Positions 4,636 to 44,780 of a stretch of DNA of 64,000 bases are shown one piece after another. Every line of letters begins with the position of its first letter. The first letter of the stretch is position 1. The stretch lies in IMG/VR virus record IMGVR_UViG_3300010049_000002; one strand, written 5' to 3'. Source of the stretch: a virus. Under the pieces are notes generated by a model. It was not told the origin of the DNA. It was given only the letters and a program-made list of their open reading frames with translations, and searched no databases. Made by a program: the position numbers and the translations under genes.

Positions 4636-5844
4636 CTAAAACCCGAGCGTCGCCTCGACGATGGCCAGCTCCGTGTCGAGCTCCCTCTTCGTGATGCCCG
4701 GCTTGTCAGCGATGAGCTTCTTCCGGAGCGCCGCACGCACTCCTGCGGGGTCGGAGAGCATCTCGTCGATGGCCGCGTCGACCTCTTCTTGCGTCTTCGG
4801 TGTCTTGCTGAAGTCCACGGGCTTCCTCATCGTGTAGTAGTTGGGCCTGCCAAACCTAGCATAATTCCAGCCCGGTGGGGCGGACTCATCGTTGAACGGC
4901 GACTCGGTCTCGACAACGAAGCCATTGCGCTGATAGAGGTCCCGGAGGCCTTCGCCGAAGCACTCGAGGTAGTTTACCCCCTCGTGCTCGATGGCGAACC
5001 GGAGCATCCGTTCACCCATGCCCTTTCGGCCGCCCGCGTTGAAAAGTGCGGTACCCTCGACCCGCCCATCACCGTGGTCCTTGACCGCGATGCCGGCGAG
5101 GCCGTCGGGCGCGAGCAGGCGAGCCTTCATCGCCTGGAGCTCCTTGACCGAATAGTGCGTGACGAAGCCCGACGCCGGGTTGCTCGGGCCCATCGCGCGC
5201 TCGAACGCCTTGCGGAACTCCTTGGCGGTGGCCCGCAGGACTTCCGGGTCGCCGGTGGGGATTGGATTGGGCTCGGTGAGCCCGACCGAGACCTCCTCCT
5301 TGAATGTGTATTCCTTCTTCTCGACAATCGAATAGCAACTCGATGTTCCAATCACCACGTGGTCGAGGAACATCACCCCCTTGCCATAGGGCTTGGTGGC
5401 TTGCTGTATCTGCCGCGTGAGCTGCTTGTCCGCGGTGCTCGGCCGAGCCTTCCCACTGGGGTGGTTGTGGGCCACGATGAAGCCCTCGCAGCCGGATTCT
5501 AGGACCGCCCTCAAAACGTCTTCGACCCCGACGACGGTTGAGCTCCTCTGCCCCCTCGCAACTTCGTAGGGAGGAGTCTTCAATTCACACCGCAAGTCGA
5601 GTGGCAAAACGAGAAAAACCTCCTGGTCCTCTTGCCGTAGGCGCGGGGCCAAGAAGGCATATACTTTTTCCGTATTATCGAGTGGGCCCACCCGCTTGGA
5701 GAGAGCCAGCGCCGCCTCATGGGTCTTGGGGTCACGGGACACGCGCGCGAAGGGGATGACGCTCTCATGGGGAGCCTCGTGGACCACCTCGACGCTCTCG
5801 GCGGGTTCCCGCGCCCCCGGGCCTTGGATGACGGTCTTGGCCAT
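4636..5844 (-). CDS. RadC-like JAB/JAMM domain fused to GNAT acetyltransferase-like domain (402 aa)
   Basis: JAMM signature HNHPSGKARPSTAD; later GNAT motif A-like GGRKGMGERMLRFAIE..GF; ATG start. Confidence 0.75.
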   Translation of the reverse strand: MAKTVIQGPGAREPAESVEVVHEAPHESVIPFARVSRDPKTHEAALALSKRVGPLDNTEKVYAFLAPRLRQEDQEVFLVLPLDLRCELKTPPYEVARGQRSSTVVGVEDVLRAVLESGCEGFIVAHNHPSGKARPSTADKQLTRQIQQATKPYGKGVMFLDHVVIGTSSCYSIVEKKEYTFKEEVSVGLTEPNPIPTGDPEVLRATAKEFRKAFERAMGPSNPASGFVTHYSVKELQAMKARLLAPDGLAGIAVKDHGDGRVEGTALFNAGGRKGMGERMLRFAIEHEGVNYLECFGEGLRDLYQRNGFVVETESPFNDESAPPGWNYARFGRPNYYTMRKPVDFSKTPKTQEEVDAAIDEMLSDPAGVRAALRKKLIADKPGITKRELDTELAIVEATLGF

Positions 5845-6196: not shown

Positions 6197-6847
6197 ATGC
6201 CCCAGCTAGACCCCGCCCAGGCCGCGACCTACTACCTGGCCCGCCTGCCCCGGCGTAGCTCTGGCCAGCCCGCCGCTTTCCGCTTTGGCGCCCTCGACCT
6301 CTCCGGGATGACCCTACCCAGTAGCCTGCCCTACACCATCGCGCGCATCACTCCGCGCAACCAGATACCCTACGGCATAGGACCGTGGACGATACCTGCG
6401 GGCGGCAAGTTTGAGGACACCATCGACCTCGGCGCCCTGACCAACGACGACATTGTCCTCGTGAATATCGCGCAGCTCCCGACGGCGGGTAGCTCTTTGA
6501 TACTAGACCCCATCGCCTACCAGTACCTGGGGACGGTGACCTACCGCATCCGCAATCCAACGACCACCGATGTCACGATTCCCGACCTCCAACGGGGAAT
6601 CATTCAGTTCGTTGTCGTCAGAAAGAACCCCGGCAGCTATCTCACGACAGTCCCGATGACCGTCCCGGGGGCCCAGCCGGGCGACCTCGTCTTCGCCTCG
6701 GGCCTGCTTGGAGATGGAATCGGGGTCGCGGGGGCGGCTGTGACTGGAGTTGATTCCGTTTCGGTGAGCCTGTTCAACCTGACCGACACCCCCCAGATGC
6801 TGGGAGCGGGGTCGCTTTTGAGCGTCATGGTCCTCTCGGCCGGATAG
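6197..6847 (+). CDS. spike/fibre-family protein (216 aa)
   Basis: Trimmed to MPQLDPAQAATYYLARL (family N-terminus); C-terminal QPGDLVF.. head resembling 4213 and 60897 products. Confidence 0.55.
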   Translation: MPQLDPAQAATYYLARLPRRSSGQPAAFRFGALDLSGMTLPSSLPYTIARITPRNQIPYGIGPWTIPAGGKFEDTIDLGALTNDDIVLVNIAQLPTAGSSLILDPIAYQYLGTVTYRIRNPTTTDVTIPDLQRGIIQFVVVRKNPGSYLTTVPMTVPGAQPGDLVFASGLLGDGIGVAGAAVTGVDSVSVSLFNLTDTPQMLGAGSLLSVMVLSAG

Positions 6848-8814: not shown

Positions 8815-9034
8815 GGTTCCTCTCGATGGTGTCTCCACAGATGATGCAGATGTCCCGGACGTAGGTCCGTACAATGAGCAGGTCCCGCGTGATGACGTCG
8901 CTCGGGATGGCTCCGTGCTTCATGCCCTCGAGGAGCCGGTCGATGACGTGGTCGGCGGAACGGTTGGGCGCCTCGTCGAACCGTCCTTCGAACCGGTGGT
9001 GGCCGAACAAGGTGGTGCACCGGACCCGGCTCAT
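8807..9034 (-). CDS. hypothetical protein (75 aa)
   Basis: ORF track; coupled to neighbours. Confidence 0.5.
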   Translation of the reverse strand: MSRVRCTTLFGHHRFEGRFDEAPNRSADHVIDRLLEGMKHGAIPSDVITRDLLIVRTYVRDICIICGDTIERNHG

Positions 9035-9264
9035 GGCTCCGGCTCGTCGGGAGGGTCATCCTCCCAGGGCTCCATGTCCTCGAACTTGTCGATGCCCCAC
9101 TCGGAGTTGTGCCAGGCCCCATCGAACTGCAAGGCCCCGCATTGGGGGCACCAATCAGCATTCTTGACCAGCTCCCGGCCGACCCAGATGCCGCTATAGC
9201 TCAAATCTGGGACTGCACCGTAGGCCGCCTCGATACGGACGCCGTTCGGGTGGGAGCAGCTCAC
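9031..9264 (-). CDS. small WCPxCG zinc-ribbon paralog 1 (77 aa)
   Basis: MSCSHPNGVRI...WCPQCGAL; paralogous to the next two genes. Confidence 0.6.
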   Translation of the reverse strand: MSCSHPNGVRIEAAYGAVPDLSYSGIWVGRELVKNADWCPQCGALQFDGAWHNSEWGIDKFEDMEPWEDDPPDEPEP

Positions 9265-9572
9265 GGTGTCTTCTCCTTGGGAGGCCCCAGGTCATTGCGG
9301 CTCGCTTCCCACTGATGCTTCTCGCAAACAGCCCCGACCACCTCCTCCCGAGGGAAGTCCCTCAGGTAGGCCATCATCCAGGAGGCCCCCTGGACCGCAG
9401 CTTGGGCTGCATCGTCACCGTGCTTGCAGAAGTCGGCAACCGCGCAGAAGGGGCATCGCATCTTCTGGAGCTCCGGCAGGCGCCACTTGTCGCCGACCGC
9501 GAGGAGCGCGCCGCAGTTCGGGCACCAATCGATGCCCTTTATCCGGACGCCATCGGAGTGGGTGCAGCTCAC
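9261..9572 (-). CDS. small WCPxCG zinc-ribbon paralog 2 (103 aa)
   Basis: MSCTHSDGVRI..WCPNCGAL. Confidence 0.6.
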   Translation of the reverse strand: MSCTHSDGVRIKGIDWCPNCGALLAVGDKWRLPELQKMRCPFCAVADFCKHGDDAAQAAVQGASWMMAYLRDFPREEVVGAVCEKHQWEASRNDLGPPKEKTP

Positions 9573-9838
9573 GGCTCACCTCCACGCCGCTCCAGGGCCT
9601 CCAGCGGCTCCTGATGCTTCTCGCCGGTCCACGGCGCGTGCCACTGCCCGCCGAAGAGCAGCGAGCCGCAGTCGGGGCACCACTCGGCCCGGAGGAACTC
9701 GTCGCGCTTCGCCTGGAAGCTCAAGGAGCCGTCGGCGCTCGGGCTAGGAATGAACCGGCCGATGGACAGACGCGCCCAGGGGCCAAACGGTGCGGGGTCG
9801 ATTTGGAAGGCCTTGTTGTGGCTACAGCTCGCGGTCAT
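9569..9838 (-). CDS. small WCPxCG zinc-ribbon paralog 3 (89 aa)
   Basis: MTASCSHNKAFQI...WCPDCGSL. Confidence 0.55.
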   Translation of the reverse strand: MTASCSHNKAFQIDPAPFGPWARLSIGRFIPSPSADGSLSFQAKRDEFLRAEWCPDCGSLLFGGQWHAPWTGEKHQEPLEALERRGGEP

Positions 9839-10059
9839 TCGGCTCCAGCCCCAATCCGCTCCATGAGCTCCCCGTAGAAATCATCTGCCAAATCAATGGT
9901 CATCGTCTTGGCGTCGCCCATGTCGAAGTCGTGGTCGTCGCCGGTCATGAAGGACGCTACTACCGTTGCCGCGGCCTCCAGGCACTCCAGCCAGTGGTGG
10001 GCCTGCTGGGCGGTGTGAAGCTCGGGGAAACCCACTTCCTCATCACTCTTCTTGGTCAT
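9835..10059 (-). CDS. acidic hypothetical protein (74 aa)
   Basis: AAGGAG SD upstream of ATG; first gene downstream of the repeat region. Confidence 0.55.
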   Translation of the reverse strand: MTKKSDEEVGFPELHTAQQAHHWLECLEAAATVVASFMTGDDHDFDMGDAKTMTIDLADDFYGELMERIGAGAE

Positions 10060-10726
10060 AGTTTCTTCTCCTTGGAAATGCCCTTACGGAACCAGCGATA
10101 CGCCACGAGACAGAACGTAGCCACACGTCACGGCAATAAGTTCTAGAGATGCCCTTACAGTACTGAGCGATACGCAACGAGACACGACGAAACGAGACAC
10201 TAAAAAACCGCGCCCTACAAAACCGCGCCGCACATAGCGGAACGCCACTGCGCGTAACCGACCCAACAGCGCGCGAGCCAACGCAACCTGACAAACGTCG
10301 CACCCGCACAGCCTCGAACATCCGCTTCTCCTCGTCGGAGACAAGTATTTTCATTTGGTTGGTTCGTTCCGCCATCTAGAAATGTCCTTACAGAACCGGA
10401 CTAGAGGTGACAGCACCACGCGCGACGACACATTGCCGCACCCCAATGAAACCCGCACTCTACTCGACGCAACCGTACGCAACGCAACGCCACAATACGG
10501 GACAGAACACCACCCAACGACATTGGAGTTCTTAGAAATGCCCTTACAGAACCGCACGAGGCATAACAGTGCCCCACGCAACCTGACACCGCCCAACGAC
10601 ACCCCGCGCAACCGGAAGCCACCTAACGTCACGCCACGTCATTATAAAAGCCATTACAGAAGATTGCCCGACGCGACACAACAACGCCATACGTAGCCAC
10701 ACCCGACAAAAGACACCGGAGGGGAC
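10060..10726. repeat. noncoding A+C-skewed region with five same-orientation copies of a 20-mer (AGAAATGCCCTTACAGAACC)
   Basis: Copies at 10074, 10145, 10378, 10534 and a degenerate copy at 10644. Extra shared words: CGCAACCTGAC at 10282 and 10577, ACGTAGCCACAC at 10115 and 10691. Plus strand is visibly T-poor. Confidence 0.8.
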
Positions 10727-11338
10727 CTAAGCCGCGAGTTCTTCCTCCTTCTGTTTCTCCCAGCATTGAATTACATATTGACCGTAAACGCCCTTCCGGT
10801 TAGGGCGAAAGTCCCCCAAGCCGCACCGCCTTCCCGCCTTGTCCCAGAGCTCCCGGATGGTGTTCTCCCCAATCTCGTGGTCGTCGATGAGAATCCTCGC
10901 CCCGAAGCTCCAGGCGTCGAAGCGCGGCCGACAGATGGCCACGGCCTCGCCCCCGTTCGGGTTTCGGCCTTGCTTGACGTCCGCCTCCCAGGTCGCGGGC
11001 TTCTCGGTGTTCGGGACGTAGAGGGGCATCACGAAATCCAACAGCGTCATGAGCCCGGGCAGTACCGTGGCTTTCGCCGTCGAGATTTGTCTCTTGGCAT
11101 CGAGCCGGACGAAGACCCCGGCCGCAATCAAGCAGGCCATGAGCATATCCCCCGGCAAGATGCACAGGTCCCCGTGCATGTAGACCTTGGTCTGGGCCTC
11201 CTCGCGCGGGGTCCGTGTGGTCCCGACGTTGGCGGCCTTGGGCTTCTTGATTTTCGTCCGGATGGTCTCGAGGGTGTTCTCGTCCATCCTATTGAACAAT
11301 AGCGGCGTGATTCCTCGACAGCGTATATTGATTAGCAT
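10727..11338 (-). CDS. conserved-looking hypothetical protein (203 aa) with Gly-rich C-terminal GLGDFRPNRKGVYG motif
   Basis: Trimmed to MLINIR (AAAGGA SD); sits between two A+C-skewed noncoding segments next to the polymerase. Confidence 0.6.
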   Translation of the reverse strand: MLINIRCRGITPLLFNRMDENTLETIRTKIKKPKAANVGTTRTPREEAQTKVYMHGDLCILPGDMLMACLIAAGVFVRLDAKRQISTAKATVLPGLMTLLDFVMPLYVPNTEKPATWEADVKQGRNPNGGEAVAICRPRFDAWSFGARILIDDHEIGENTIRELWDKAGRRCGLGDFRPNRKGVYGQYVIQCWEKQKEEELAA

Positions 11339-11395
11339 TGGATTTTTTCCTTTTTCCCCTTGCGGGGCCTTACAAAAGAGGAGGGCACATCGCAT

Positions 11396-11484
11396 AACGA
11401 GAACCTAGCGAACGTCGCGTAACCTGACGTAACAACACCCAACCCGACATGACGATACCTGGCGTCACCAGACGTAACCCGACG
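11396..11484. repeat. second A+C-skewed noncoding segment (GACGTAAC / CGTAACCTGAC words)
   Basis: CGTAACCTGAC at 11418 matches words in 10060..10726; weak 20-mer relic GCCTTACAAAAG at 11367. Confidence 0.5.
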
Positions 11485-14187
11485 TTATTCAAAGTCCCTC
11501 CATCTAAGCCCGACCTTCAAGTCAATGTCCTGAATGAACTCAACCCCTCCAGGTATTCGCACAGGCTCTGACCAAATCTCTTTTATAGCCTTAGTGGCCT
11601 TGTCGACCTTGTCTTCCGGGCACTCGTACACAGAACTGTCGTACTGATACAGACAATGCCGTATGCCCCCCGGGAGCCGCTGGTCGGTCAGGGCCAGCCG
11701 CTCGTTCATCACGTCGGCCACCCCGCTCTGCACGGGGAAATTAGCCACTTCCTGCGGCTTGGGGAAGTGGCCGAGCCACCTTTTCCGACCGAGGAACGGG
11801 GAACGCAAATAGCCCTGCTCCGAGCACACCTTGATGTTCTCCCGCACGTATTCCCCGTAGCGCCAGTACTTCACCCGGATGGCGTCGATGGCATCCTGGC
11901 AGGTATCCAGGTCGATGGTGAAGCCGTGCTCGAGCAAGTGCTGATGGAGCCGCTCGGCCTCGGCGAGGTAGATGATGGCGAAGCCGCAGTTCTTCGCGAT
12001 GTCTCTGAGTTCCTTCCCCTTGCCTTTGGGGTCCTCCAGGCGTTCCAGAGCGCCGGGCATACCGCCGAACAAAATCTTGGCGTTCGCAGTGTGGATGTCC
12101 GACCTGCAGGCCTCGATAAAGGCCGCGTCGCCGCTCAAGGCGCTAGCAAATCTCATCTCGGATTGCCGCAAATCGTAATAAATCAGCCGATGGCCCGGAG
12201 CGGCGATGTAGATGTCCCGGCATTGGTACTCAGCGAGAGGCTCTTTCCGCTTCTTGGGGTTGCAGGTCTCCTTGTGGGTCATCCCATCGATGAGGGCCAA
12301 ACCGCAACCGGGACAATGCTGAAATCTTGGGATATTCAATAAGTTAGGTACCCGAGCGGAGGGCCGTCCGGTCTCAGTCCCATAACTCCTCCAGTGAGCG
12401 TGAACGCGACAATCTGCCCCTAAATGCAAACCATCTAAATATTCCTTTCTTACGTCATTCGCCGTCCTCCAGGCCATAATCAATCTGGCTAATTGGGCCG
12501 CCTTGTTGCTCCCCATCGCCAGCTTTTCCAGGGTGGCCTTGTTGACGGCCAAGAGCCCGGTCGGGGTCAGCTCTGTCAGATAGGTCGGGGTCTTCAGCTG
12601 CTTGAAGAGGGCCCTGCGCAGGTCCCCCGGCCGGCTGGGTGAGAAGGTCCGCCGGTCGAGCAGGGCCCGCATCTGGCCGAGTAGTGAAGCCGACCGCCGG
12701 CGGAGATGAACGGAGAGCTCCCGCTTCCGCTCCTGGTCCACGAGGAGCCCGTTGACCTGCATCTTCCTACACAAGAGCGCATGCCTCATGTCGTGCTCGT
12801 AGACGCGCCTTTCTACACTCAGGTTGTCCTGCATCCGAATCCAGGCCAGAGACCCTAAATGGATATCGGCGGCGCAGTACATGGGTAGGTCCGCCTCGGC
12901 GACCCCAAAACCCCTTACCCCCTTCTCCTCGGAGCCGACCTTGAACTTTATCTTCCAGGGGGCGGAGCTGTTGTAGATGGAGCTGACAAAAGATAGCGAC
13001 TTCGGCTTGTCGCTCGCGAAAGCAAAGTGGGCAATCAACGTGTCCTCGCGCTTGGAGTAGGTCACCCCGAATCGGGCCAAGGCGATTTCATCGAAGCTAG
13101 GGCCGTTGTGGGTGACGACCGTTCGGTCCTTGAGAGCGTCCCGCAAAACGGAGAACATCTCCGGGGCTAGGAACACCTGGTCGGGAGGCTTGGTGAGGAG
13201 AACAATCCGGCTCTTGAGGAGCCTCTTGACCTTCCCCTTGGCCACCCTCTCGATGTGCTGAACGTCGGCCAGCCCGACGCACGTGATTCCAACTTCTAGC
13301 GGGTCAGTTCCGTCCGTCTCGATATCACAGTTGATGACCGGGCCCATCTTGGCCAGGAGCCGTCGAGCCTTCTCCGGGTCGCTCGTCTCGATGAACGGCA
13401 CCGCGTCCTCAAGGGGGAACCCTTCCGGGCCGCTGGCAATCCACCGGGCCATCCTCCCGATGTCGATGCGTAGGACCGGCATCCAGCTATCGGCCCCCCG
13501 CAGAATCATGGCGGGATGAACGCTGGGGATGACAACCCGGCCCTGGAGGGTGGCCCGGCACTTCAGCAACGCGAGGGAATCTCGGGCCGACTCAATCCGC
13601 TCCGGAGATGCTGGCCGCACCTCCAGGAAGGTCCCGTCCCGCTGTACGACCGAGCCCTGGAGCCGGAGCAGGTTCCTCTGGGCGCTCTTTATCGACCCAT
13701 GGGGGATTTCGGCCGCATGCCAGACAAACCCACGGATTCTCATCACCGATGATTTCCCGAGCGTCGGCCGGCAGGCCTCGGAGCCCAGGGTGAGAATCGG
13801 CACCCCGGGGAACTCCCCTAGCTCTTGAGCCAATCGGCCCGCGCAGCAGGGGATGGCGCGCTTCAAAGCTTGGTCGTTGTCGGAGACGCAAAGGGCTGCG
13901 TTGGTGATGTGGCATTCATCGCGACGTAGCCCAGCTTCCCCCAGGCACTCATTGAGCAACCGGCCGCTGGGTCCCTTGAAGGGACCACCGAGGTTCATCT
14001 CATATCGGCCCGGGTTCATCCCGATGATGATGAGCTTCGGGCTCCCGCGAGCGCGCTCCGGGGGAACGGGCTTGGAGCCGCGAAGAGAGCATCGATGACA
14101 CTCAGCTCCTTGAGCCGCCGGCCAAGGGACCTCCGGGGGGTCAGGCGGGATGGCCGCAGAGAGGGCAGACAATCCCGCCGCCGTCAT
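11485..14187 (-). CDS. family-4 UDG-like domain fused to family A DNA polymerase with 3'-5' exonuclease (900 aa)
   Basis: UDG-like GMNPGRYE..GGPFKGPSGRLL, HPAMILRG. Exo DIETDG. Pol motif A DLRQSEMRF, motif B RDIAKNCGFAIIYL, motif C QYDSSVYE. Confidence 0.9.
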   Translation of the reverse strand: MTAAGLSALSAAIPPDPPEVPWPAAQGAECHRCSLRGSKPVPPERARGSPKLIIIGMNPGRYEMNLGGPFKGPSGRLLNECLGEAGLRRDECHITNAALCVSDNDQALKRAIPCCAGRLAQELGEFPGVPILTLGSEACRPTLGKSSVMRIRGFVWHAAEIPHGSIKSAQRNLLRLQGSVVQRDGTFLEVRPASPERIESARDSLALLKCRATLQGRVVIPSVHPAMILRGADSWMPVLRIDIGRMARWIASGPEGFPLEDAVPFIETSDPEKARRLLAKMGPVINCDIETDGTDPLEVGITCVGLADVQHIERVAKGKVKRLLKSRIVLLTKPPDQVFLAPEMFSVLRDALKDRTVVTHNGPSFDEIALARFGVTYSKREDTLIAHFAFASDKPKSLSFVSSIYNSSAPWKIKFKVGSEEKGVRGFGVAEADLPMYCAADIHLGSLAWIRMQDNLSVERRVYEHDMRHALLCRKMQVNGLLVDQERKRELSVHLRRRSASLLGQMRALLDRRTFSPSRPGDLRRALFKQLKTPTYLTELTPTGLLAVNKATLEKLAMGSNKAAQLARLIMAWRTANDVRKEYLDGLHLGADCRVHAHWRSYGTETGRPSARVPNLLNIPRFQHCPGCGLALIDGMTHKETCNPKKRKEPLAEYQCRDIYIAAPGHRLIYYDLRQSEMRFASALSGDAAFIEACRSDIHTANAKILFGGMPGALERLEDPKGKGKELRDIAKNCGFAIIYLAEAERLHQHLLEHGFTIDLDTCQDAIDAIRVKYWRYGEYVRENIKVCSEQGYLRSPFLGRKRWLGHFPKPQEVANFPVQSGVADVMNERLALTDQRLPGGIRHCLYQYDSSVYECPEDKVDKATKAIKEIWSEPVRIPGGVEFIQDIDLKVGLRWRDFE

Positions 14188-17527: not shown

Positions 17528-18955
17528 TCAGCCCCCACCGTCTTTCTCATTGGTTTCGCTATCTTTTAGCAGACGCAGCGGCCGGTATCGCTTCCCATTC
17601 ACCTTCCCCTCGAGGTGTCCGAGGGCGTTCAGGCGACGGCCAAAAGCGTTCATGCTGGGCGCACGAAACCCTCGTTTTTCAGCCCATTCAGTGAGGCCCC
17701 CATAGAGGTCCGCGATTGGCGTCCAGCCATTTTCTCGGGTGACGGGACGCTTCAGAGTGACCGAGAGCCGGTCCTTGACGAACTCATAGATAGGGTCGGT
17801 CTCGGCCCGCCAGTCGTCGATGGCCTGGGGGTGGGACGCCGGGATGGTGTAGGCGCCTCTGGCGAGGGCCTTGGCTCCGGTTCTAATGAGCCACGAGACC
17901 ATCTGGGGCCTCTCGGTGGCCAGGACCTTCTCGGCGAGCCCCAGGACCCGCGCCGGGTCGCCGGTGAACCTCCGGTTGAACGTCAGCACCAGAGGCCGCC
18001 TCCAGAAGCCGTGGCTGCTATCGGCGAACCGGGGATACTCATTGCTGGCTAGGATGTGGCCGGCGATGGGCTTGAACTCGATGGGCTTCTCGCGGATGGG
18101 CCGCCCGCGCATCTTGTCGCCGGTGGTGATGGCCTTGAGGGTGACGGAATCCAACACCTCCCGCTGGTTCACCTCACTCACCGTGTTGAGAAGCTTCCCG
18201 CACAAATCCGCCCGGTCGTACTCATTCTCGAGTCGCTCCGGCCGGATGGAGCAGGTGGACCCGGTCGGGAAGCACCCGGTGATGAGCTCCAGGAGAGTGG
18301 ATTTCCCGTCTTCCCCCGGGCCCTTCAGCAGGAGCCATTGCTGAAGACGTGTAGCCGCCCCTAGGAGGCACACCCCCGCGAACTCCCCCACCAGTTGCAC
18401 CTTCTCCGGCCCGTCGTCATCGGGCTTGAACATCCCCCGGAGCGCATCGAGGAGCAGGGCGGGTTCCTCCTCCGTGTAGGGGAAGTCGTATGCGAACCGG
18501 ACCAGGTGCTCGGGCGAGTGGTCCCGGAAGCCAATCTCACCCTCACCCGTGACGTAGACGAAGGCGTCGCGGAACGGCAGGCCGGGGGACGTGCCGGTGA
18601 AGAACTCGCGGCTCCACGCCAGGCCCCGCAAGCACCAGAGGGCCCCTTTGAGGTCGGCGGCCTTCAGGTGAATCACGTGCTTTCCGAAGGGGGTCCGGTC
18701 GTAGCGCTCCAGGGTTCTGGCGAGTTCTTCCTCTGAGATTCGCGCCCAGATGCCTACCGGGTCGTACCGGTAGAAAGCGCCCTCATCGTAGACGGGGGCG
18801 ATGACCTTCCCATCGAGGTTCACCGAGAACTCGTGCTGGAGGGCCTTGGCATACTGGATATGGCCCTTGCCCTTCAATCTGTAGGGTGACTTGGCGGCCT
18901 TGGGGGGCGCCTTCTGCGGCTCCTCCGGGGTCTTTCGGTTTTCATTGTCGTTCAT
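17528..18955 (-). CDS. D5/P4-family SF3 helicase-primase-like protein (475 aa)
   Basis: Walker A GPGEDGKST; LNTVSE..GDKMRGRPIREKPIEFKP..HILASNEYP block typical of phage/plasmid primase P4 C-terminal region; trimmed to MNDNEN (AAGGAGGA SD). Confidence 0.8.
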   Translation of the reverse strand: MNDNENRKTPEEPQKAPPKAAKSPYRLKGKGHIQYAKALQHEFSVNLDGKVIAPVYDEGAFYRYDPVGIWARISEEELARTLERYDRTPFGKHVIHLKAADLKGALWCLRGLAWSREFFTGTSPGLPFRDAFVYVTGEGEIGFRDHSPEHLVRFAYDFPYTEEEPALLLDALRGMFKPDDDGPEKVQLVGEFAGVCLLGAATRLQQWLLLKGPGEDGKSTLLELITGCFPTGSTCSIRPERLENEYDRADLCGKLLNTVSEVNQREVLDSVTLKAITTGDKMRGRPIREKPIEFKPIAGHILASNEYPRFADSSHGFWRRPLVLTFNRRFTGDPARVLGLAEKVLATERPQMVSWLIRTGAKALARGAYTIPASHPQAIDDWRAETDPIYEFVKDRLSVTLKRPVTRENGWTPIADLYGGLTEWAEKRGFRAPSMNAFGRRLNALGHLEGKVNGKRYRPLRLLKDSETNEKDGGG

Positions 18956-19112
18956 CACACCATCCTCCTTCCACGCCCGTAACGGGTCTGTGGAAATCTT
19001 GTTGAGAGCTCCTCCGGACCTCCTTCCCTTCAGAACCAGGACGCTACGCCGGGTTGACATTAGCCACCGGGTGCACATAACTCAAGCCACACACGGGATA
19101 CGGGTTGACGAT

Positions 19113-20499: not shown

Positions 20500-20759
20500 C
20501 AATTCCCTCAAAAGAGCGCGAATGGCGGGAGTGGGCCTGCCGGAAGATTGCCCGCCTCGACGCCGAGTGCGAGCAGCTCCTGGCGCAGCTCGAATCCTTG
20601 AGAGCCAGAAAGACGGCGGATGGCAGGCCCCGATGCGACTGTGGCTGGCTCCTACCACACCGCTTCGAATGTCTTGGTCATATGTCCATCCTCCGGGTCG
20701 AGTGCCCGGAATGCGGAGAGCGCTACCTCATCAAGTCCCCCAAGGAGGCCACCCAATGA
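20496..20759 (+). CDS. small zinc-ribbon-like protein (87 aa)
   Basis: Trimmed to MTIPSKER; CDC...CPEC. Confidence 0.5.
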   Translation: MTIPSKEREWREWACRKIARLDAECEQLLAQLESLRARKTADGRPRCDCGWLLPHRFECLGHMSILRVECPECGERYLIKSPKEATQ

Positions 20760-21934
20760 GGGGCGACAACGGCGCGGAGCTGCTCGAAGAGCTGGAGCGG
20801 GAACCCCGGGGCGAATCAACCCAGGAAGACCCTGAGATTGTCCCGACGGCGAGCCGGACCGACCTGCTATTCGCCTGCACCTATCCCTGGGGCCGGCGGG
20901 CTCCAAAGACTGACCCGGGACCCCCGGCCAGATTCGGGCTCGCGTTTCATAAGGCCATGGAGCTTCTCTTCAGCGAAGGGGCCTACGACCCGGAGACCAT
21001 CGCTTCTCGCCATGGGATAGACGCCGAGGAGCTGCGCACGCGCGTTGAGCCGTCCTATTCGGTCCTCCGCAAGTGGCTCACGGAGAACCTGTTCGACCTC
21101 AAGTTCATCCGTCCCCAAACCGAGGTCAGCGTGGCCTACAATCCCTGGGAGGATACGGCCCGGGACTGCCTGCCTCCGACCGAGGAGACCCACGAGTACT
21201 CCGACCGCAGGCCGGGGGAGATTCCCGGGACCGCGGACCTCGTGGCCGCCGCCCAGGGCGACCGCTCGAAGATTCTGGGCGACCCCTCAAAGGTCCTGGT
21301 CGTCGACTACAAATCCGGCTGGGACGTCGGAGCGAGCTGGCAACCTCATACCCCCGCGGAGTCGGGCCAGCTCCGGTCCCTGGCCCTGGCCTTCTCCAGG
21401 CTCTGGGGGGCCAAGGAACTCTTCGTCGCCTTCCTCCACGCTCCGGCCGGGGGCGCCCCCGAGGTTCTCTCCGACCGGTTGACATTGGAAGACCTCGAGG
21501 AGCACCGGAGGAACCTGCGCCGGGCCATGGGCCAGATTGGCTCCGGCTGGATGAGGCCTAGAGAGTGGTGCGCCCACTGCCCGGGGTTCAGTATTTGTCC
21601 TGCGCAGAGCAATGCTTTGGTGGCCTTGAACAGACCCCCGGGACCTCTCTCGGCGAGCCGCGTTGGGGCCATCCACCAAGCGACGGGGCTCTACGACAAA
21701 CTTCGGGAGCGGCTGAGAGACGAGATAAGAGCCTGGGTGAAACAACATGGCCCGGGAATCCGCCCCGACGGCCAAATCGTCGACCTGGTCGAGACCGAGA
21801 CGACGAACCTCTCCCAGGCCAGCATCGAGAGAGCCTTGGGCCCGCTGAAAGGTGCCAAAGAGATAGAGCGCCTCAATAAGCTTGGGTGCATTGAGAAGAA
21901 GAAACGGGTCGAGCTTCGAGCGAGGAAACAATGA
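20756..21934 (+). CDS. Cas4/RecB-like PD-(D/E)XK exonuclease with Fe-S-type Cys cluster (392 aa)
   Basis: GTADLV and VVDYKSG nuclease motifs; CAHCPGFSIC (CxxCx5C) plus N-terminal Cys; AAGGAGG SD. Confidence 0.75.
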   Translation: MRGDNGAELLEELEREPRGESTQEDPEIVPTASRTDLLFACTYPWGRRAPKTDPGPPARFGLAFHKAMELLFSEGAYDPETIASRHGIDAEELRTRVEPSYSVLRKWLTENLFDLKFIRPQTEVSVAYNPWEDTARDCLPPTEETHEYSDRRPGEIPGTADLVAAAQGDRSKILGDPSKVLVVDYKSGWDVGASWQPHTPAESGQLRSLALAFSRLWGAKELFVAFLHAPAGGAPEVLSDRLTLEDLEEHRRNLRRAMGQIGSGWMRPREWCAHCPGFSICPAQSNALVALNRPPGPLSASRVGAIHQATGLYDKLRERLRDEIRAWVKQHGPGIRPDGQIVDLVETETTNLSQASIERALGPLKGAKEIERLNKLGCIEKKKRVELRARKQ

Positions 21935-43373: not shown

Positions 43374-44780
43374 ATGGCTGAGATGGGTATAAAAGATAAT
43401 GATTCCGGATACTTAGACACGAAAGCGCGCATCATGGCGGCGATACGGGGCAAGGGCTACTCCCCCCCGGCTACCCAGCGAGAGCCCGACCCGCCCGCGG
43501 AAGCTATACCGGCCGACGAAGATAGCCCCGATAGCGAACCGGTCGAAGAGCCCACCGAGCAGGAGCTCCTGGAGGCGGCGGGAATCCCGAGCCACGTAGC
43601 GGCGGCGATAGCGGCCCCGGACGAGGGCGCGCCCGGCGAGCTACCGGAGGTGGGCGCGGATGCTAACGGGGCCCCGGGGGCTCCAAGCCGAGCGCTGGCC
43701 CTGCGCACCGATTTGCTCCCGCCCGGCGCAGGGGTGCTCTGCGCGCTTGAGGACGACCCGGGCCTCTACTGCATGCAGAGCTACCTGGCGTCGCGGGTTT
43801 CCGGCGACAGCAAACGAACGATGCTCCAATCCCTGCAAAGGGTCGCCCGGATGCTCAACACCACCCCGGACAAAATCGCCTGGCACAAGCTCCGGTTCCA
43901 GCACACCGATGCGATTCGAGCAAAGCTCCTCGACTGCGGCTACTCCCGCGCGACGGTGATGATGACGCTGGCCGGCCTGAAGGGGGTGCTTCGTCAAGCA
44001 AAGCGGCTCGGGCTCATGTCCGTCGAGGATTACGACCGGGCCACGGACTGGGACCCGGCGACGGGCGTTTCGCTCCCCCCCGGGCGCGAGCTCTTGGCCG
44101 TCGACATCCAGAGCATCCAAGCCTATCTCGGCCAGCTTGAGGGCACGGCGTACGGGGCGTATCTGGAGGCCGTCTTCGCGCTCTGCCTGGGCCTGGGATT
44201 GCGCGGCGACGAGGCTTCCAACGTGCTGACGGTCGGCCTGGACCTTGGGAAAGCAACGTTGAAGCTCCTGGGCAAGGGCCACAAGGAGGACGAGGTTCCG
44301 CTAGGGCCCGCGGAGAGCCGGGCGCTAAGCTCCTGGCTCGCCTGGCGCAAGTTCTTCGAACGTCGGCACCGCGTTCCCCACCTGCTTCTCAGGGTCCAGC
44401 CGAACGACACCGTGATGAAGAGCCGGCCCACCTGCGACCGAAAGCAGCTCGAGTACCTGTGCCGCCGCGTCGCCCGCGAGGCCGGGGTCAAGCACTTCTC
44501 GCCCCACGACTTGCGGCGGACCTTCTGCACCCGGGCCATCCGCGAGAGTGGGGGCGACCTCGCGACGGTCCAGCGGCTCATGCGCCACGCCGACATCGGT
44601 ACCACGAAACGCTATGACCGGCGAAGCGACGAGGAGCGCCACGCCGCCCGGCAGAAGTGGACCATCTGGCGGCCCCCGGAGCCGGTCGAGCCCGAGCCGC
44701 TTGAGGAGCCCGAGCCGCCGGAGAGCCCGCCGGAAACTCGCAAGCCCGGGTTCCGGTTGCTCCCCGGGGGCAAGACTTGA
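43374..44780 (+). CDS. int: tyrosine recombinase/integrase (468 aa)
   Basis: LGLRGDE (box I Arg), HDLRRTF, LMRHADIGTTKRY (His-x-x-Arg..Tyr) catalytic signature. Confidence 0.9.
   Translation: MAEMGIKDNDSGYLDTKARIMAAIRGKGYSPPATQREPDPPAEAIPADEDSPDSEPVEEPTEQELLEAAGIPSHVAAAIAAPDEGAPGELPEVGADANGAPGAPSRALALRTDLLPPGAGVLCALEDDPGLYCMQSYLASRVSGDSKRTMLQSLQRVARMLNTTPDKIAWHKLRFQHTDAIRAKLLDCGYSRATVMMTLAGLKGVLRQAKRLGLMSVEDYDRATDWDPATGVSLPPGRELLAVDIQSIQAYLGQLEGTAYGAYLEAVFALCLGLGLRGDEASNVLTVGLDLGKATLKLLGKGHKEDEVPLGPAESRALSSWLAWRKFFERRHRVPHLLLRVQPNDTVMKSRPTCDRKQLEYLCRRVAREAGVKHFSPHDLRRTFCTRAIRESGGDLATVQRLMRHADIGTTKRYDRRSDEERHAARQKWTIWRPPEPVEPEPLEEPEPPESPPETRKPGFRLLPGGKT

Follow-up and report, generated by a model that had tools for sequence, protein, structure and literature searches.

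VIPR (Viral Interference Programmable Repeat) systems are a form of RNA-guided DNA recognition known only since 2026, made up of one 20-kDa protein and a short guide, and have been proposed to be older than CRISPR. The prototypes are the type II system of Escherichia phage SUSP1 and Felixounavirus, and that of a Pseudomonas fulva prophage (10.64898/2026.04.26.720920, 10.64898/2026.04.26.720927). The Vipr protein is accompanied by vrRNAs in which YNNGG repeats lead into an invariant 3' tail, and NNNGG, YNNNG and NNNNG have been published as other repeat consensuses; long intergenic regions lie on either side of vipr, SUSP1 has one upstream vrRNA and a downstream array, and the published systems are without self-targeting (10.64898/2026.04.26.720920). 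A vrRNA is defined by at least four tandem pentanucleotide repeats in which a conserved GGY, or a related consensus, alternates with a variable NN. The published vrRNAs have 9-16 repeats, and internal degeneracy is frequent in functional ones. In SUSP1, a change of GGY to AGY abolished silencing. An accessory gene, vap, adjacent to vipr is typical but not universal. Membership of the class further entails vrRNAs of about 100 nt that co-purify with Vipr, and programmable silencing, and the types (I-VII) are assigned by Vipr phylogeny, vrRNA architecture and the identity of vap.

Here we report that the window (the whole 64-kb stretch of viral DNA analyzed) very probably carries, at 10072-11484, a minus-strand VIPR locus of a temperate phage. 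The locus is a fresh example of the class already described in 2026, and contains vipr and six vrRNAs, of which one is upstream and the other five form a downstream array (Table 1). Protein homology and fold, retention of the contact residues, the repeat architecture with its strand and register, the handle and the layout in relatives were shown by this analysis. The viral context is given by a phage DNA polymerase, a primase/helicase, an exonuclease and an integrase encoded in the window, and by relatives found on IMG/VR contigs.

Table 1 Positions of vipr, the six vrRNAs and the spacer in the window.
Feature	Coordinates	Strand	Description
Upstream vrRNA (U)	11339..11484	minus	23 pentamers in one register (11484..11370), the first 15 perfect xGYNN; last unit TGTAA (11374..11370), then a CCCC-GCAA-GGGG hairpin (11367..11356)
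vipr	10727..11338	minus	203 aa; single-RRM RAMP; thumb CR137PRFD; G-loop GLGD176-F177-R178-P
vrRNA D1	10642..10708	minus	9 xGYNN units; handle TCTTC TGTAA; degenerate tail TGGCTTTTATAA
vrRNA D2	10532..10638	minus	17 units; GGTTC TGTAA; tail GGGCATTTCTAA
vrRNA D3 (composite, 144 nt)	10376..10519	minus	13 units (10519..10455), a 12-nt register-shifting break, then 9 units and GGTTC TGTAA (10442..10388); tail GGACATTTCTAG
Spacer within the array	10294..10375	minus	82 nt, without pentamer repeat
vrRNA D4 (composite, 151 nt)	10143..10293	minus	7 units (10293..10259), a slip of 1 nt in the register, and 21 units that end in AGTAC TGTAA (10259..10155); tail GGGCATCTCTAG
vrRNA D5	10072..10132	minus	8 units, a 1-nt deletion after the eighth, GGTTC CGTAA; tail GGGCATTTCCAA

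The small gene beside the polymerase encodes a Vipr homologue

The gene had been noted for the Gly-rich C-terminal motif of its product (GLGDFRPNRKGVYG), and both the gene and the motif are as described. Pfam, NCBIfam and PADLOC returned nothing for the 203-aa protein, and a full-length match was obtained to PHROG 4652 (E = 3e-17). Felixounavirus hypothetical proteins were matched by tblastn at 94% coverage, hhalign against the Felixounavirus VpaE1 homologue gave a probability of 95.9% (E = 5e-9), and a profile of 37 homologues matched PDB entry 36pp, 'SUSP1 Vipr protein', with E = 1.8e-5. Identity to the Felixounavirus homologue is only about 24-25%. The AF2 model of the protein (pLDDT 88.3, pTM 0.82) was compared with the PDB using Foldseek, and the best 50 matches listed were all Cas7-type RAMPs, namely Csm3, Cmr4, type VII Cas7 and Csf2 (best E = 5e-6, TM 0.41-0.56). 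As in the SUSP1/Felixounavirus and P. fulva systems, there is a single RAMP, some 200 aa long and built of an RRM core, a thumb with a conserved Arg, and a G-loop of the form GxGD-aromatic-RP.

In the cryo-EM structure of the SUSP1 system, R138, D177, W178 and R179 hold G2 and Y3 of the repeat (10.64898/2026.04.26.720927). These residues align to R137, D176, F177 and R178 of the window protein, which are present in all 18 loci, among 32 aligned, that share the Asn and Phe of the window; three more of the 32 keep the contact residues, with Tyr replacing Phe or Lys replacing Asn. SUSP1 H17, which reads G1, is replaced here by Asn16, a residue invariant in the 37-sequence alignment, and this replacement fits the non-conserved first position of the repeat described below. 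Asn16 was considered as a sufficient cause of the relaxed first position and rejected, because two Asn-bearing loci (L002 and L007) have 95% and 78% G there.

The window protein is intact, and many of its relatives are 55-72% identical to it with invariant contact residues. The closest of them has a protein 72% identical and a different tail, and the closest named relative lies in a Planctomycetaceae MAG (48% identity). The clade is very common in metagenomes, with 3,759 clusters (50% identity, E ≤ 0.001).

Pentanucleotide repeats run on the vipr strand

The preliminary description recorded a plus strand rich in A+C and poor in T around the gene. The minus strand of 10060-10726 is 34.5% G, 30.7% T, 21% C and 13.8% A, and this G/T richness accounts for the skew on the other strand. 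The same description rightly listed a set of 20-mers as repeats and missed the main regularity, a 5-nt tandem repeat on the minus strand between them. The minus-strand noncoding segments consist of xGYNN repeats, with 105 units in 8 in-phase tracts. G occupies position 2 in 95% of the units and position 3 is always a pyrimidine (T 82%, C 18%), figures that are partly built in because the tracts were sought by G and Y at positions 2-3; when the register was anchored on the tails alone, the values were 70% for G and 80% for Y. Only A is disfavored at position 1 (C.40, G.30, T.25, A.05), and any base is accepted, at near-uniform frequency, at positions 4-5. The consensus thus matches the YNNNG variant, not the canonical YNNGG.

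The periodicity was also evident from G autocorrelation, which was 0.25, 0.29 and 0.21 at lags 5, 10 and 15 and absent in the polymerase gene. At period 5 it reached z = 10.7 in the downstream segment and z = 4.9 in the upstream segment against 1000 dinucleotide shuffles. When the whole 64 kb was scanned, the tracts with at least 7 hits were all in the locus and all on the vipr strand. No two of the eight tracts have three or more consecutive identical NN units in common, while GY and the tail are constant. The region had been described as without a credible open reading frame. Long mechanical frames of 110, 113 and 93 aa do cross it, all of them in sequence of period 5 and not period 3, and the 110-aa frame (the one of the three that was scanned) matched no Pfam or PHROG family.

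The upstream noncoding segment, previously given as 11396..11484, extends over 11339..11484. Its tract begins immediately after the polymerase stop codon (11487..11485), its final (3') third is partly degenerate, and an A-rich stretch bearing the vipr ribosome-binding site lies 3' of the hairpin. D2 is the best-formed guide, with xGY in 18 of 19 units. Within the array, the gap from a tail to the following tract is only 3-13 nt, and the D5 tail abuts AAGGAG, which is the ribosome-binding site of the next gene (ATG at 10059). The 82-nt spacer could hold an internal promoter or be what is left of a gene. Given the register breaks in D3 and D4 and their lengths beyond the reported 9-16 repeats, parts of the array may be decayed.

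The 20-mer is a shared 3' handle

On the minus strand, the previously noted 20-mer is the conserved 3' end of the tracts, GGTTC TGTAA GGGCATTTCTA. It had been taken as the functional repeat, with the plus strand as the reference; it is instead the 3' handle, and specificity lies in the minus-strand 5-nt tract upstream of it. The copies were found where they had been placed: AGAAATGCCCTTACAGAACC occurs on the plus strand at 10074, 10145, 10378 and 10534 with 2, 3, 1 and 0 mismatches, and the degenerate fifth copy at 10642-10661 has 85% identity over 20 nt. No further copy of AGAAATGCCCTTACAGAACC exists in the 64 kb; the expectation from 100 dinucleotide shuffles is 0 matches. The weak relic reported near 11367 is real and corresponds to TTTTGTAAGG on the minus strand (11379..11370), and the other shared words, CGCAACCTGAC / CGTAACCTGAC, ACGTAGCCACAC and AGCGATACGC.ACGAGACA, were found as well. 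The five downstream copies of GGTTCTGTAAGGGCATTTCTA are 85-100% identical, each 3' of a tract and in register with it, and all six tails, the upstream one included, have an invariant GTAA.G.C core in common.

No structure was predicted for the five downstream tails, which fold no better than shuffles (z 0.0 to +1.4); the upstream tail alone has a hairpin, of 4 bp with a GNRA loop. A hairpin in the 20-mer itself was considered and rejected, as the GTTCT/AGAAC pairing exists in the D2 copy only and folds no better than shuffles. The GGGCATTTCTA handle is unlike the hairpin tails of the closest relatives of the locus. A search of IMG/VR with a degenerate 19-mer of the tail for closer relatives gave 4 chance hits, in low-GC contigs without tracts.

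The layout follows vipr in related loci

Same-strand tracts were found within 1.3 kb of the vipr homologue in 25 of 32 related loci, the Felixounavirus control included, in which GGYNN tracts and tails flank vipr on both sides. Among the relatives the architecture tracks vipr amid varied neighbors without a polymerase, such as an SNF2 helicase, RadC and a methyltransferase. An all-against-all BLASTP comparison of the open reading frames within 3 kb in 23 loci revealed no conserved vap gene, that is, no family besides vipr shared with the window. The next gene (74 aa, acidic) had no family match, and the three genes downstream of the array matched no PADLOC or NCBIfam Cas or defense model. Rfam gave no match for the RNAs and no hammerhead ribozyme, no tRNAs were found, and the single terminator-like site is on the wrong strand.

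Searches for guide targets

Within the 64 kb, the best NN match was at most 65% for guides of at least 10 units and never better than for shuffled guides; the 7-unit tract D4a reached 86%, also no better than shuffled guides. Targets were sought in 41 loci, and nothing exceeded the shuffled-guide controls. D2, U, D3a and D4b, each searched as an exact 10-unit NNx pattern, had 0 hits in IMG/VR contigs, the exact NNx patterns of D2 and U had 0 hits in JGI metagenome contigs, and an exact 11-unit D2 pattern had 0 hits in GTDB genomes. An 8-unit D2 pattern gave 4 hits in IMG/VR, all of which failed on extension (3-6 of 18 further bases). These IMG/VR, JGI and GTDB scans required exact matches with zero mismatches and are therefore a weak test. 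The published search, with NNx queries in nhmmer and without gaps, tolerates mismatches (at least 80% NN).

Alternative explanations

The preliminary description had proposed a lytic replication origin, in which the 20-mers would be initiator-bound iterons next to replication genes. Iteron origins such as lambda ori and P1 oriR do have short direct repeats of one orientation beside replication genes, and here five direct 20-bp repeats in a single orientation lie between the DNA polymerase and other replication genes. An iteron origin, however, has clustered, phased iterons beside an AT-rich unwinding element and an initiator gene. The spacing at this locus is long and irregular (71, 233, 156 and 110 nt), no AT-rich element is present (GC 0.53-0.57), cumulative GC skew has no inflection and there is no initiator-binding logic. 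An origin would also leave the strand-specific 5-nt periodicity of the inter-repeat DNA unexplained, and in relatives the tracts go with vipr in polymerase-free neighborhoods and not with replication genes, so we regard it as highly improbable. Tandem promoters, the other role suggested earlier, would have every 20-mer start a short transcript, from the plus-strand TAGAAAT or from a minus-strand motif. The plus strand has a -10-like TAGAAAT/TATAAA core, each vrRNA needs its own start or processing site, and the tail-to-tract gap is short. Against this, no sigma-70-like -35/-10 pair was detected on either strand in 9800-11700, TAGAAATG is present at two copies only, the motif is absent elsewhere in the 64 kb and so is not a general phage promoter, and plus-strand transcripts would be antisense to all genes of the region. 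The motif also sits in register at the 3' ends of tracts, as VIPR tails do. Promoters alone are thus very unlikely to explain the repeats; a tail might still have two roles and also provide the signal from which the next guide is started. The third role suggested earlier, in which the flanked RAMP-like protein binds GU-rich RNAs of one family, is the one supported by the homology to SUSP1 Vipr and by the minus-strand pentanucleotide architecture.

A CRISPR mini-array or an RNA anti-CRISPR, with the 20-mers mimicking the repeats of a host array, is brought to mind by direct repeats beside a Cas7-like protein in a phage. In a CRISPR array, repeats of 23-50 nt recur at regular spacing, the spacers between them are unique and about as long, and cas genes are usually present. 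Here the repeat of 20-26 nt has no palindrome or stable fold, its irregular intervals (51-213 nt) consist of 5-nt repeats and not unique spacers, and no PADLOC or NCBIfam Cas model matches the RAMP or any of the three downstream genes, leaving this explanation hardly credible. The predicted fold does match that of the Class 1 CRISPR backbone RAMPs (Cas7 family) on crRNA, which likewise place one protomer per RNA repeat length and flip bases at a fixed period with the thumb. Unlike Class 1 CRISPR, the window locus has no CRISPR array, no Cas5, Cas6, Cas10 or Cas1 and no repeat-spacer structure. Two bases would be read in each 5-nt period, against five in each 6-nt period of Class 1 CRISPR, and the guide is genome-encoded and not acquired. 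The locus might also be a decayed remnant, that is, a VIPR-derived array that is unexpressed or unloaded, or a protein with another RNA-binding role. The degenerate D1 tail, the 1-nt deletion in D5, the register breaks in D3 and D4 and the partly degenerate end of U point in this direction, as does the lack of matches in the exact-match target scans. On the other side stand the intact protein with many relatives at 55-72% identity and invariant contact residues, the near-perfect D2 and first 15 units of U, and the internal degeneracy often seen in published functional vrRNAs; we consider such a remnant very unlikely.

Comparison with SUSP1 and proposed mode of action

The VIPR reading places the locus close to SUSP1-type systems, with which it shares guide genes that flank vipr in long intergenic regions and have its orientation, 5-nt repeats with a conserved G-Y and two free bases, and a common 3' tail starting with GGG. 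One upstream guide with a downstream array, carriage by a phage and the lack of a self-target are further likenesses. Unlike in SUSP1, the first position of the repeat varies among C, G and T (30% G), giving YNNNG and not YNNGG, H17 is replaced by Asn, and no vap gene is adjacent. The six guides include two composite ones, the tail sequence differs, and the five downstream copies have no predicted pseudoknot or stable hairpin; the missing pseudoknot is a difference and not an exclusion, as such a tail has been stated for the SUSP1 clade only. Given the low identity to the Felixounavirus homologue, the lack of vap1 and the YNNNG consensus, the sequence indicates that the locus is probably not VIPR type II.

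By homology to SUSP1, each repeat would be bound by one Vipr protomer, with the conserved G and pyrimidine flipped into the pockets formed by the thumb Arg and the G-loop Asp-aromatic-Arg. As in the SUSP1 system, the two variable bases of each repeat would be displayed and could pair with dsDNA bearing matching dinucleotides, with one base skipped between each, leading to a gapped R-loop and a block of transcription. We infer that the vrRNAs are expressed and processed, and the 1-nt-skip code would apply to the YNNNG-type repeat of this locus. The six guides have no common runs of three or more variable dinucleotides and no match in their own 64 kb. Competing phages, prophages or satellites are the most likely bearers of the genes that they would silence.

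A more speculative proposal is that the Asn16 Vipr clade, which is large and mostly metagenomic, uses a code other than the published GGY/NN 1-nt-skip rule, a proposal that we hold to be unlikely. The repeats retain G2 and Y3 alone. In such a code, position 1 could also be displayed and paired together with NN, so that three bases of each repeat would be read and the target would be contiguous. Alternatively, the unstructured GGGCATTTCTA handle could mark a different capping or processing route without an accessory protein. The NNx scans could also catch contiguous targets, and their results do not bear on this proposal either way.

Implications

A practical lesson for annotation is that, where A+C-rich, T-poor noncoding DNA with scattered 20-mers lies beside a small unannotated gene, a check for period-5 G-Y should be made on the strand of that gene. 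Read as VIPR, the locus adds a well-preserved six-guide case from an uncultivated, GC-rich temperate phage, in which the repeat can retain no more than G-Y as its conserved core and the system can lack the accessory gene. As a natural test case, it could show whether the 1-nt-skip code holds for YNNNG repeats, how the 3' end of a guide is defined without a structured tail, and what such phages target.

Pentanucleotide repeats flank the 203-aa gene

Because all credible genes of this region lie on the minus strand, we analyzed the noncoding DNA in the same orientation. On this strand, 10060-10726 is 34.5% G, 30.7% T, 21% C and 13.8% A, and base counts together with a repeat search bore out the preliminary description of an A+C-rich plus strand with copies of a 20-mer. 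This 20-mer, AGAAATGCCCTTACAGAACC, occurs at 10074, 10145, 10378 and 10534 (2, 3, 1 and 0 mismatches), with a degenerate fifth copy at 10642-10661; the rest of the 64-kb window has no further copy, and the number expected by chance is zero.

G residues recur every five nucleotides on the minus strand, with autocorrelations at lags 5, 10 and 15 of 0.25, 0.29 and 0.21 (downstream segment) and 0.31, 0.22 and 0.17 (upstream segment); the polymerase gene has no such periodicity. Relative to 1000 dinucleotide-preserving shuffles, the period-5 signal had z = 10.7 (downstream) and 4.9 (upstream). In six-pentamer windows, G-pyrimidine was found in up to 6/6 units in one phase and mostly in 0-2 in the other four. 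In register, both segments are runs of xGYNN (105 units in eight tracts), with position 1 C.40, G.30, T.25 and A.05, position 2 G.95 and position 3 T.82 and C.18 (this G and pyrimidine being part of the search criterion), and near-uniform base use at positions 4 and 5. In an independent register, counted back from the tails and taking in every unit between elements, position 2 was G in 70% and position 3 a pyrimidine in 80%. Across the 64 kb, tracts of at least 7 units were confined to the minus strand of this locus. D3 and D4, two of the downstream guides, are composite and change register internally. The guides have no run of at least three identical NN units in common. Other words previously listed as shared, for example TGTCA GGTTG CG, proved to be coincidences of pentamer runs.

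On the minus strand, the 20-mer reads GGTTC TGTAA GGGCATTTCT, that is, the final two tract units plus a common 3' extension. Six such 3' ends are present at the locus; five of them closely resemble one another, and the sixth, upstream (TGTAA GGCCCCGCAAGGGG), has the invariant core GTAA.G.C in common with them. No structure was predicted in the downstream tails. A pentamer-free stretch of 82 nt divides the downstream array and may represent an internal promoter region or what is left of a gene. It holds an ATG followed by MKILVSDEEKRMFEAV, resembling the start of a ribbon-helix-helix protein, and the frame then enters the repeat tract.

Features of the locus and other genes of the element
Feature	Position	Strand
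Three small ORFs (77, 103, 89 aa)	9031..9838	-
74-aa gene	9835..10059	-
Guide D4	10143..10293	-
Non-repeat spacer	10294..10375	-
Guide D3	10376..10519	-
Guide D2	10532..10638	-
203-aa gene (vipr)	10727..11338	-
Upstream guide U	11339..11484	-
DNA polymerase gene	11485..14187	-
Primase/helicase	17528..19078	
Exonuclease	20522..21934	
Tyrosine integrase	43374..44780	+

The 203-aa protein is a Vipr homologue

VIPR systems, described in two 2026 preprints, combine a minimal phage-borne RAMP (Vipr) with vrRNAs of 9-16 YNNGG repeats and an invariant 3' tail, encoded in long intergenic DNA on either side of vipr (in phage SUSP1, one lies upstream and three lie downstream). Each repeat is bound by one Vipr protomer that sequesters GGY, and the NN dinucleotides pair with DNA, skipping every third base, which silences transcription. 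In nature the systems target rival phages, prophages and satellites, and self-targets are absent. Seven types are known, some with the consensus NNNGG, YNNNG or NNNNG, and accessory genes vary or are absent. In SUSP1 Vipr, thumb R138 and G-loop W178 hold G2, R179 holds Y3, D177 is also in the G-loop, and H17 reads G1 (10.64898/2026.04.26.720920; 10.64898/2026.04.26.720927).

The 203-aa protein had no matches in Pfam, NCBIfam or PADLOC, which as yet hold no model for its Vipr family, and was matched end to end by PHROG 4652 (function unknown, E = 3e-17). By tblastn it resembled Felixounavirus hypothetical proteins (24-25% identity, 94% coverage), and hhalign against the Felixounavirus VpaE1 homologue gave 95.9% probability (E = 5e-9, residues 52-193). 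A profile of 37 homologues retrieved one PDB entry, 36pp 'SUSP1 Vipr protein' (E = 1.8e-5). The AlphaFold model was confident (pLDDT 88.3, pTM 0.82), and its best 50 Foldseek matches in the PDB were Cas7-type RAMPs throughout (Csm3, Cmr4, type VII Cas7, Csf2). The metagenomic family comprises 3,759 clusters at 50% identity (E ≤ 0.001; 1,014 at E ≤ 1e-10), far exceeding its membership in annotated databases.

SUSP1 R138, W178, R179 and D177 align with R137, F177, R178 and D176, and all four contact residues are found in 21 of 32 aligned loci (in a few, Tyr replaces Phe or Lys replaces the Asn described next). The H17 position is Asn, invariant in the 37-sequence alignment, which fits the unconserved repeat position 1. 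Asn is not a sufficient cause of this relaxation, as some Asn-bearing relatives have 78-95% G there.

Related loci and neighboring genes

The layout is conserved among relatives: same-strand tracts adjoin the vipr homologue in 25/32 related loci, which derive from IMG/VR, from metagenomes and from MAGs of Planctomycetaceae, Terriglobales, Gammaproteobacteria and Patescibacteria. In a locus from Felixounavirus that served as control, vipr is flanked on either side by canonical GGYNN tracts and by GGGTAG... tails. In the closest relative (L020, 72% identity), a single guide lies upstream, its hairpin tail placed immediately ahead of the ribosome-binding site of vipr, and a single guide lies downstream, with a tail (AGTAA TCCAAGGGCTACTTCTAAAAGG) similar to those of the window.

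Two relatives have unbroken in-phase runs of 43-55 pentamers (L010 5633..5907; L013 4303..4572 and 5441..5655; G-Y in 52/55, 44/54 and 36/43 units), far above the repeats reported per single vrRNA, and these may be staggered or unpunctuated arrays. A distant relative (L018, 24% identity) has A-W-R rather than D-F-R in the G-loop and Ala at the His17 position, and its repeats (4869..4963, 5602..5744, 6591..6660) are AGCNN-like (position 1 A 50%, position 3 C 93%); this is another repeat consensus co-varying with the protein.

No neighboring gene family is common to the window and its relatives, so no vap is recognizable. The 74-aa ORF is very acidic, its ribosome-binding site overlaps the last vrRNA tail, and Pfam, PHROGs, PADLOC and NCBIfam gave no family match for it; as relatives do not conserve it beside vipr, it is unlikely to be a vap. 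Just downstream of the array, three tandem paralogous ORFs have WCPxCGAL-type zinc-ribbon motifs (3/3) and an MSC(S/T)H start (2/3), with only faint zinc-ribbon family matches. The polymerase is a fusion protein: its N-terminal domain resembles family-4 uracil-DNA glycosylases (PF03167, E = 3e-15) and precedes an exonuclease-like region and a family A polymerase. The element encodes a tyrosine integrase (PHROG 1, E = 3e-29) and is therefore a temperate phage or provirus; it also encodes a primase/helicase and an exonuclease.

A variant VIPR locus

The preliminary description had offered an iteron origin, tandem promoters, or GU-rich RNAs bound by the flanked protein, with a hint of RAMP affinity. 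Neither the origin nor the promoters were supported, as each leaves the strand-specific 5-nt repeat, its 20-mer register and the association with vipr in unrelated neighborhoods jointly unexplained. A CRISPR mini-array and coding sequence were rejected on the same grounds. The RNA proposal and the RAMP hunch were right, given the Vipr homology, the Cas7-type fold matches and the pentamer tracts. All VIPR-defining features that could be checked are present in the window, and the locus is a real, well-preserved VIPR locus, a further example of the recently described system.

Guide matches did not exceed shuffled-guide controls in the window or in a set of 41 loci, and scans of IMG/VR, JGI metagenomes and GTDB genomes gave nothing surviving extension, a weak negative since only exact matches were sought. 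By homology, the system would most likely use its guide RNAs to silence transcription of competing mobile elements. Unlike the SUSP1-type prototype, the window has a YNNNG-like consensus, no recognizable vap, downstream tails without predicted structure, composite guides and an array split by a non-repeat spacer, and these variant features merit experimental attention.
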